From IMG/VR virus record IMGVR_UViG_637000107_000010: a DNA stretch of 64,000 bases. The stretch is one strand, 5' to 3'. Of the stretch, positions 4,836 through 5,454 are shown piece after piece. Numbering within the stretch: position 1 is the stretch's first letter; each line of letters opens with the position of its first letter. The position numbers were made by a program, and so were the translations under genes. The DNA is from a virus (Duplodnaviria; Heunggongvirae; Uroviricota; Caudoviricetes). The notes beneath the pieces were generated by a model, which was not told where the DNA came from, made no database searches, and saw only the letters and a list, made by a program, of their open reading frames with translations.

Positions 4836-5069
4836 ATGTTAAAATCAACTCTTATTGCTAAATGCCTTTATCAAAATCGCATGGTAAGCAGCATTTCAAT
4901 AGGCGAGTCTGCAGTTAAAAGTATTTTCGAAGAGTACTTTCCCGGGCATGATTTTAATAAATGGAATACCAAATTACCGCCAGCAGTTTCAACGCGTATT
5001 CTGAAAGCAACCGAAAGAGCAAGTACAATTCGCGTTAACTATTTCATTAAAGATTTGTGGGATCTTTGA
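4836..5069 (+). CDS. Hypothetical small protein (77 aa), AT-rich, opposite strand to the early-left operon
   Basis: ORF preceded by GGAGG-like RBS (ctcaggaggg); convergent with the downstream minus-strand gene. Confidence 0.25.
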   Translation: MLKSTLIAKCLYQNRMVSSISIGESAVKSIFEEYFPGHDFNKWNTKLPPAVSTRILKATERASTIRVNYFIKDLWDL

Positions 5070-5454
5070 TATCCACAGAGCCTAAAGTATGTGCATATGG
5101 ATGTGCTATTATGCGCCCTCGCAGATTTGCATCATTTTCTAAATTCACTGAACGAAACAGGGCATCAACAAGGCTCTGTACAATGCAAAGGCAATCGAAG
5201 ACTGTCGCCGTTTCTGTTTTGATTGATGAAAGAACATGGCCATTCACGCAAACAGAAATTACCCGTTTATTAACATCGCTTTCCTGCTTTTGATTATCAG
5301 AACCATATAGCCCAGAAAAAGCATTGCGCACATTACGAACCATATTATCGATGGTTTCTTTTTCTGCGGTACTAAGGTCAAGAGTAGCCAGTTGTGAACG
5401 AACTATATTCGATGCCATTTCCTGTAATGGCGTTGGTAAATCTTTAAATTCCAT
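5047..5454 (-). CDS. Hypothetical protein (135 aa), MEFKDLP-family; paralog at 32333..32971
   Basis: N-terminal ~50 aa conserved with the P2 protein (MEFKDLP...DNMVRNVRNAF.GLY). Confidence 0.45.
   Translation of the reverse strand: MEFKDLPTPLQEMASNIVRSQLATLDLSTAEKETIDNMVRNVRNAFSGLYGSDNQKQESDVNKRVISVCVNGHVLSSIKTETATVFDCLCIVQSLVDALFRSVNLENDANLRGRIIAHPYAHTLGSVDIKDPTNL

Follow-up and report, generated by a model that had tools for sequence, protein, structure and literature searches.

Phage HK022 encodes Nun, a small RNA-binding protein that is specified by the immunity region of the prophage and expressed in the lysogen. In lambda, the non-coding oop RNA converges with cII. In lambda and P22, sieB and esc occur together with the antisense RNA sas, an arrangement that was reportedly described by Ranade and Poteete in 1993. 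Here, we analyzed a stretch of 64,000 nucleotides of caudoviral DNA (IMG/VR record IMGVR_UViG_637000107_000010; "the window") that carries two prophages, in each of which a short plus-strand open reading frame (ORF) converges on a minus-strand gene for a protein beginning with MEFKDLP. An earlier note, made from the sequence alone, had drawn attention to these pairs (small ORFs at 4836..5069 in prophage 1 and 32111..32332 in prophage 2) and had offered antisense regulation or a two-gene module as explanations. We find that both small ORFs are genes and that each forms a unit of inheritance with the C-terminal domain of its convergent neighbor.

Results

Both small open reading frames are genes

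The small ORF of prophage 1 (4836..5069, plus strand) encodes a protein of 77 residues that is annotated as a hypothetical coding sequence in RefSeq (ECs1762, also ECs_1762; WP_000920491.1) and matches the PHROG family phrog_10348 with an E-value of 1e-47. Its Shine-Dalgarno sequence, AGGAGG, is located at 4826..4831 on the same strand, 4 nt from the ATG. For prophage 2 the start had to be refined. Since GGAGGA (32113-32118) lies 4 nt upstream of the ATG at 32123, the PHROG family phrog_4274 aligns with residues 5-73 of the longer frame and all homologs comprise 69 residues, translation most likely begins at 32123 and not at 32111, which yields small gene 2 (32123..32332, plus strand, 69 residues), likewise a RefSeq coding sequence. 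As the earlier note had stated, the two ORFs are AT-rich (GC contents of 0.36 and 0.37 compared with 0.50 for the window) and unrelated to each other (E-value of 8.2).

Full-length homologs of the 77-residue protein with identities of 55-72% are present in at least eight enterobacterial genera, including Klebsiella/Raoultella, Salmonella, Serratia, Dickeya, Xenorhabdus, Morganella and Yersinia, and 28 positions are invariant. The median pairwise ratio of nonsynonymous to synonymous substitution rates (dN/dS) is 0.14 for this family and 0.23-0.27 (about 0.25) for the 69-residue family. Small ORFs 1 and 2 are real genes, both under purifying selection. Because of this selection, the RefSeq annotation, the PHROG families and the recurrence of the layout with at least seven unrelated small ORFs, the arrangement in the two prophages goes beyond chance.

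Production of ECs1762 in uninduced cells and its crosslinking to RNA have already been published. In the total RNA-associated proteome (TRAPP) of strain Sakai, sampled from uninduced stx(-) cells in MEM-HEPES at an OD600 of 0.8, UV crosslinking gave at least 2-fold enrichment of the native protein, and RNA crosslinking of tagged ECs1762 was confirmed, above background, by polynucleotide kinase (PNK) labeling (Zammit et al., 2025; PMC7618764). The same authors report that the protein is without a detectable RNA-binding domain (PMC7618764), and our comparisons gave no sequence or structural similarity to Hfq, ProQ/FinO, CsrA, KH, S1 or CSD folds. An AlphaFold2 model predicts five helices with a mean predicted local distance difference test score (pLDDT) of 97.4. 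The earlier note had named absent transcription of the plus-strand ORFs as the outcome that would overturn it; for ECs1762, the published protein detection contradicts this.

Each small gene is paired with a C-terminal domain

Small gene 1 faces ECs1763 (ECs_1763; WP_000394552.1, hypothetical; 5047..5454, minus strand), a protein of 135 residues that matches phrog_1363 with an E-value of 5e-47. Small gene 2 faces a MEFKDLP-family protein of 212 residues (phrog_2151; 32333..32971, minus strand), whose likely start is 32971 within an ORF spanning 32333-32983. The N-terminal resemblance reported earlier holds: 27 of 50 residues are identical (BLASTP E-value of 2e-17), the shared domain comprises residues 1-55 of ECs1763 (5290..5454, minus strand; 54% identity to the prophage 2 copy), and beyond this part no similarity exists. 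The placement is also alike in both prophages, as had been noted; the 3' ends of the first pair overlap by 23 bp (5047..5069) and those of the second, at 32332 and 32333, abut without overlap. The overlap is an imperfect palindrome (AAAGAT-N7-ATCTTT) and codes for ..IKDLWDL* on the plus and ..IKDPTNL* on the minus strand. DNA homology between the prophages, at 93%, extends from dicB through DicF (4258-4782 corresponding to 31454-32063), ends just before the ribosome-binding site of each small ORF and returns, at 69%, only where the N-terminal part is encoded (5317-5454 corresponding to 32834-32971). The variable block therefore consists of exactly the small ORF and the C-terminal part of the convergent protein.

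In prophages of Serratia, Klebsiella/Raoultella and Salmonella, the 77-residue homolog always faces a convergent gene for a protein of 77-79 residues. These standalone partners share 35-41% identity with residues 58-135 of ECs1763 (pairwise E-values of 1e-14 to 4e-16), a region hereafter termed the partner domain (5047..5283 including the stop codon, minus strand). The 87 loci chosen by the 77-residue gene include about 13 distinct variants from outside E. coli, among them assemblies of Serratia, Klebsiella/Raoultella and Salmonella and some IMG/VR contigs. The partner domain was present in each complete locus whose small gene is intact, while the flanking genes differed, and no intact small gene 1 without partner was seen among the complete loci of this set. 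The 3' overlap of 23 bp (26 in some) is kept in all lineages of this pair. Complete E. coli genomes contain small gene 1 at 664 places and DNA for the partner domain at 675, almost 1:1.

What precedes the partner domain varies: it may be nothing, the MEFKDLP domain (in E. coli), a YdfC-like domain or, in one lineage (L178), a ClpX C4-type zinc finger (PF06689, E-value of 2.4e-8, 34 bits). The YdfC-like N terminus resembles the ydfC product of the window (E-value of 1e-9) and is fused to the partner domain in two loci (L184 and L186; partner gene at about 3209-3800, minus strand) that are closest to the Yersinia-type small proteins. A separate, adjacent YdfC-like gene is found in L179 (3480-3707, minus strand), just as in the window, where ydfC (5477-5695, minus strand) directly precedes ECs1763. 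This combination of fusion and adjacency, a Rosetta-stone pattern, suggests that YdfC works together with the partner domain.

The second pair recurs in a Salmonella integrative element (L189/L190, 2476-4008), which carries integrase, AlpA-like helix-turn-helix and Ash/derepression genes and is P4-like or resembles phage-inducible chromosomal islands (PICI). There, a homolog of the 69-residue protein (77% identity) is separated by a 3-nt gap from a standalone convergent ORF that is 79% identical to residues 96-212 of the 212-residue protein, i.e. to the C-terminal module encoded by 32333..32686 (minus strand, including the stop codon). The element also has a MELKDLP gene nearby, which stands apart from the cassette and encodes a further type of C terminus. 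In a third cassette, the gene opposite a 69-residue relative (54% identity) of a 63-residue small gene from the MEFKDLP loci is convergent and encodes a protein whose C-terminal part corresponds to the tail of the 201-residue MEFKDLP form. With three cassettes co-inherited, the unit of inheritance is therefore the small gene plus the C-terminal domain. As judged from these comparisons, the MEFKDLP N terminus is a common carrier that is dispensable for the pair. Of the two-gene module suggested earlier, the module itself stands, supported by co-inheritance amid differing flanks for both pairs; the pairing is with the C-terminal domain and not with the shared MEFKDLP part.

The two halves appear to decay unequally. 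In the 201-residue form and in five loci (L017-L019, L185, L187), the partner is kept although the small gene is no longer intact; in these five loci, the 77-residue ORF is cut to 42 residues and is separated by a 95-bp gap from an intact partner gene encoding an ECs1763 variant of 70% identity.

One N-terminal domain carries many C termini

The homology search for the MEFKDLP family that the earlier note had called for revealed a small family restricted to enterobacteria, mostly Escherichia with few Salmonella matches. A scan of genome contigs for the MEFKDLP domain hit E. albertii only, and an exhaustive HMMER search added nothing but further enterobacterial relatives and two low-complexity false positives. 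The conserved N-terminal part of about 52 residues carries at least six unrelated C-terminal classes (135/201, 124-126, 133-137, 208-212, 122 and 129 residues). Most classes, among 101 loci, have their own convergent small ORF, with sizes of 77, 63, 73, 64, 69, 100, 99 and 91 residues. These ORFs start at the border of the DicF-side conserved flank, each preceded by one of two common leaders, and their ends reach or overlap the 3' end of the MEFKDLP gene. Strict 1:1 pairing throughout the family was considered and rejected, given that the 124-residue class occurs with no ORF or with several different ones.

Helices at residues 8-23 and 29-50 are predicted for the MEFKDLP domain in a low-confidence model (pLDDT 45); the AlphaFold2 model of ECs1763, built with E. 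coli homologs only, was poor (pLDDT 45) and was left out of the fold search. PHROGs placed all four proteins in families of unknown function only. ECs1763 is named beside nle and esp genes in typing panels, and a role as type III secretion system (T3SS) effector or chaperone was therefore considered. The idea was dropped because the panel entry goes back to an "EHEC-specific hypothetical" (EHEC, enterohemorrhagic E. coli) of a comparative genomic hybridization (CGH) study and because the partner domain is also present in Serratia and Klebsiella phages.

The cassettes lie in repressor-controlled early-left operons

Each of the two sites belongs to an early-left operon on the minus strand, in a lambdoid prophage of the dicBF (Qin-like) type, as shown by the order repressor - ydfA/ydfC - DicF - dicB - DUF1482 - exonuclease on one strand. 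The cassette occupies the position between ydfC or ydfA and DicF. In prophage 1 the order is repressor (6331-6738, minus strand), a gene for 99 residues, ydfC, ECs1763, a variant of the small RNA (sRNA) DicF (4537-4586, minus strand), dicB, the DUF1482 gene and exonuclease (1422-3893, minus strand). In prophage 2 a DUF1391 (ydfA-like) gene (32983-33216, minus strand) is followed by the 212-residue gene, canonical DicF (31733-31784, minus strand; 75 bits with Rfam) and dicB. The DicF variant of prophage 1, the downstream neighbor of the cassette in the operon, scores below the Rfam gathering threshold (43.5 versus 48 bits; E-value of 6e-8) because its terminator stem differs. A weak STnc100-like match overlaps 4343-4548 (minus strand).

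An operator-like sequence at 6242..6256, a candidate left operator (OL), is located upstream of the 99-residue gene and is an inverted copy of 6764-6778 in the repressor-cro interval (15-nt arms, 93% complementary), which places ECs1763 in a repressor-controlled leftward operon. A Klebsiella-type locus (L105) points the same way: two copies of the operator ACAGnTAAAACTGT lie between cI and cro (the right operator, OR) and two more between cI and the partner gene, which makes the partner gene the first in the repressor-controlled leftward operon. No terminator was found between the convergent genes of either pair. With 3' ends that overlap or abut, each transcript is bound to run into the opposing gene, and antisense regulation, the other explanation offered in the earlier note, would, by this geometry, be unavoidable for the convergent pairs.

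Between DicF and small gene 1 lies a conserved structured leader (4587..4835, corresponding to 31785-32110 in prophage 2; 93% identity) that was found as 79 distinct leader sequences in nearly all dicBF-type loci, including those without a small ORF. In prophage 2 it contains a 76-bp insertion relative to prophage 1 (31905-31980) with an ambiguous base at 31967. Its last 40 or so nucleotides (about 4796-4835), GTGGAGAACTCCTTAAT.ACCAACCCTCAGGAGGGTGA, precede unrelated ORFs of 77, 91, 73, 64 and 63 residues, and a second leader type is common to the ORFs of 69, 100 and 99 residues. The leader folds significantly better as plus-strand RNA, with z-scores in the two prophages of -2.1 and -3.2, than as minus-strand RNA, with 0.2 and -1.1. 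A hairpin at about 4720-4735 (CTCTGA-CTTT-TCAGAG) has compensatory variants (CCCTGA/TCAGGG) and an intermediate, GTCTGA/TCAGGG, whose U.G pair is possible on the plus strand only. Folding and hairpin variants hint at a plus-strand transcript that would run antisense to the precursor RNA of early-left/DicF. About 35 nt upstream of the small gene, loci outside E. coli have a conserved extended -10-like motif, TTCACCAC...GGTGGTATCTT. Inside dicB, both prophages contain an identical promoter-like site, TTAACA-16-GAGAAT (4427-4454 and 31623-31650, plus strand), although the number of such hits is not above chance; an RNA started at this site would oppose DicF as antisense and continue into the small ORFs.

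Positions 4400-5800 match prophage Sp9 of strain Sakai and strain EDL933 with 100% identity, and the window is E. coli O157:H7-type DNA. Its 93 ambiguous bases, with Ns from 10077 on, mark it as a draft-quality assembly. Apart from the cassettes, each prophage contains a hok/sok-type element, an STnc100 + AgvB sRNA pair beside tRNA genes and an IS3-family frameshift pseudoknot (ALIL), at 11618-11767, 38995-39169; 16737-17006, 44488-44742; and 22406-22522, 47203-47319.

Discussion

The pairing and the operon position are established by the comparisons above, as is the reality of the genes; expression of ECs1762 and its crosslinking to RNA are established in the literature. From here, we infer reciprocal expression, physical neutralization and a biological role. 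We tentatively propose self-contained tail-to-tail two-gene cassettes in the early-left operon, the halves of which are reciprocally expressed, with the partner neutralizing a small RNA-contacting protein, and put the probability of this reading at roughly 45%. The small gene, on the opposite strand and with a strong ribosome-binding site of its own, would be on in the lysogen and yield, in the case of ECs1762, a compact helical protein of uninduced cells, while the other half, the C-terminal domain of a protein from the repressor-controlled early-left (pL-type) operon, would be repressed. There, the small protein may act on RNA, for example by excluding a superinfecting phage or by silencing early transcripts. 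Upon induction, transcription from pL would produce the partner and at the same time oppose the small gene through collision and antisense RNA. The partner domain would then neutralize the small protein, so that lytic growth of the prophage itself could escape. Several unrelated cassettes in Escherichia prophages of the dicBF type appear to have been joined in frame behind the common MEFKDLP domain of about 55 residues, and the conserved flanks on either side would allow whole cassettes to be swapped by recombination.

The roles of the two halves could be reversed, with the C-terminal domain from the early operon as a host-toxic early function and the small lysogen protein as an antidote against its leaky expression. 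The layout would fit, since pore-forming colicin operons likewise combine a variable C-terminal domain with a small convergent, constitutive immunity gene; moreover, neighboring early-left genes have known host-toxic functions (DicB and DUF1482/YdfD; Kil has also been named), and the small protein is present in uninduced cells. We nevertheless regard this polarity as improbable. The partner is kept where the small gene is lost or shortened (the 201-residue form and the five loci described above), which is unexpected for a toxic half, and a protein antidote does not need the RNA crosslinking of ECs1762. The outlasting of the small gene by the partner in decayed loci suggests instead the assignment made in our proposal, the small protein as effector and the partner as harmless neutralizer. 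In another reading, the plus-strand element would serve solely as antisense RNA opposing the early-left transcript, and its ORFs would be incidental. The P22 sas RNA and lambda oop are antisense precedents in this phage region. The convergent overlap and a plus-strand leader that is conserved and well folded even at loci without a small ORF would be in line with such a function. Purifying selection on both ORFs and the detection of ECs1762 by mass spectrometry (PMC7618764) largely exclude non-coding antisense as the sole function, and together with the very confident predicted fold of the 77-residue protein and the conservation of its family across genera they make this explanation highly improbable.

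Several observations weigh against the proposed cassette mechanism. Directly upstream of small ORF 2 lies a terminator-like hairpin (about 32051-32098, plus strand), GACCACACG-TGACAG-CGTGTTGGTC followed by TCCATTTTT, and the E. coli leader yielded no convincing promoter for the small gene, with consensus scans at chance level. The PNK test relied on over-expressed tagged ECs1762, and TRAPP also captures DNA-binding proteins. The asymmetry of decay is drawn from no more than two or three independent events. When all four proteins and a partner-domain alignment were scanned with Pfam, NCBIfam and PADLOC, no informative match resulted, and no relative in the PDB pointed to any role for the cassette proteins. 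Within the MEFKDLP family, the commonest form (124 residues) is without any small ORF and has a gap to dicB that is about 150-290 bp shorter, C termini of this type are found together with three different small ORFs, and the 91-residue ORF looks like a plain insertion that shortens the MEFKDLP protein to 106 or 109 residues. These family data would suit a MEFKDLP 3' end that is merely a recombination or insertion hotspot for independent small "moron" genes, without a functional link, adjacency elsewhere resulting from tight physical linkage. The sharing of each leader type by unrelated ORFs and the presence of a SieB gene beside the module, in the same orientation, in Salmonella (L108) would suit it as well. 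Such a hotspot has difficulty in accounting for three cassettes whose partner stays the same at 35-60% protein divergence even though all other neighbors change, for the conserved 23-bp overlap, and for the nearly equal numbers of the two halves of pair 1 in E. coli genomes (664 and 675 places), and we consider it unlikely.

A wider claim is that the loci represent a new class of exchangeable tail-to-tail cassettes in enterobacterial temperate phages and satellites, composed of a small RNA-binding effector of the lysogen with a new fold and a cognate neutralizing domain that the first early proteins would bring in upon induction, with many of them attached to one N-terminal adaptor in Escherichia. 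This is on the unlikely side. If true, it would mean a polymorphic exclusion and self-immunity system that is wired into the lysis-lysogeny switch through convergent transcription.

Comparison with known systems

The sieB/esc system resembles the cassette in that its gene is located in the early-left region, is oriented against pL and is on in the lysogen, in that the sieB phage has its own escape function and in that antisense RNA is involved. In Salmonella L108, the SieB (PF14163) gene even adjoins the module, where it is a separate neighbor. However, SieB, a membrane protein of about 160-190 residues, has no similarity in sequence or size to the cassette proteins, neither small ORF gave any Pfam match at E<=0.01, and Esc is an internal product of sieB itself rather than of a convergent gene. 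Nun, like ECs1762, is a small RNA-contacting prophage protein made in lysogens, but ECs1762 is without an arginine-rich motif and is predicted to be a folded five-helix protein, and Nun is without a convergent partner.

Colicins and polymorphic toxins (CdiA-CT/CdiI, Rhs) share with the MEFKDLP genes a conserved N-terminal part, swappable C-terminal domains and an adjacent small cognate gene, and the immunity genes of pore-forming colicins are, in addition, convergent and constitutive. At least six C-terminal classes follow the MEFKDLP N terminus of about 52 residues, and, just as in polymorphic toxins, new cassettes are added by in-frame fusion, of which the 201-residue form is an example. A small gene of its own for each C-terminal domain was seen for the 77-, 69- and 63/69-residue cassettes and not for the 124-residue class. 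In contrast to these toxins, MEFKDLP proteins are cytoplasmic phage early proteins of 106-212 residues, their N-terminal domain is unneeded for the pair, and domain profile scans gave no recognizable toxin, secretion or delivery domain. With type II toxin-antitoxin (TA) systems the cassette has in common two small co-inherited proteins, mobile elements as carriers and asymmetric decay. Its genes, however, are convergent with 3' overlaps of 0-26 bp and not co-transcribed, the two halves are under different regulatory regimes, and neither the small ORFs nor the MEFKDLP proteins matched type II TA or defense profiles (Pfam, NCBIfam, PADLOC). By the defining features of sequence and organization, the cassette is a member of none of these systems, be it sieB/esc, Nun, colicin/polymorphic toxin or type II TA. 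With oop and cII, finally, it shares convergent transcription that overlaps a phage regulatory gene at its 3' end; the difference is that the convergent transcript of the cassette encodes a conserved protein.
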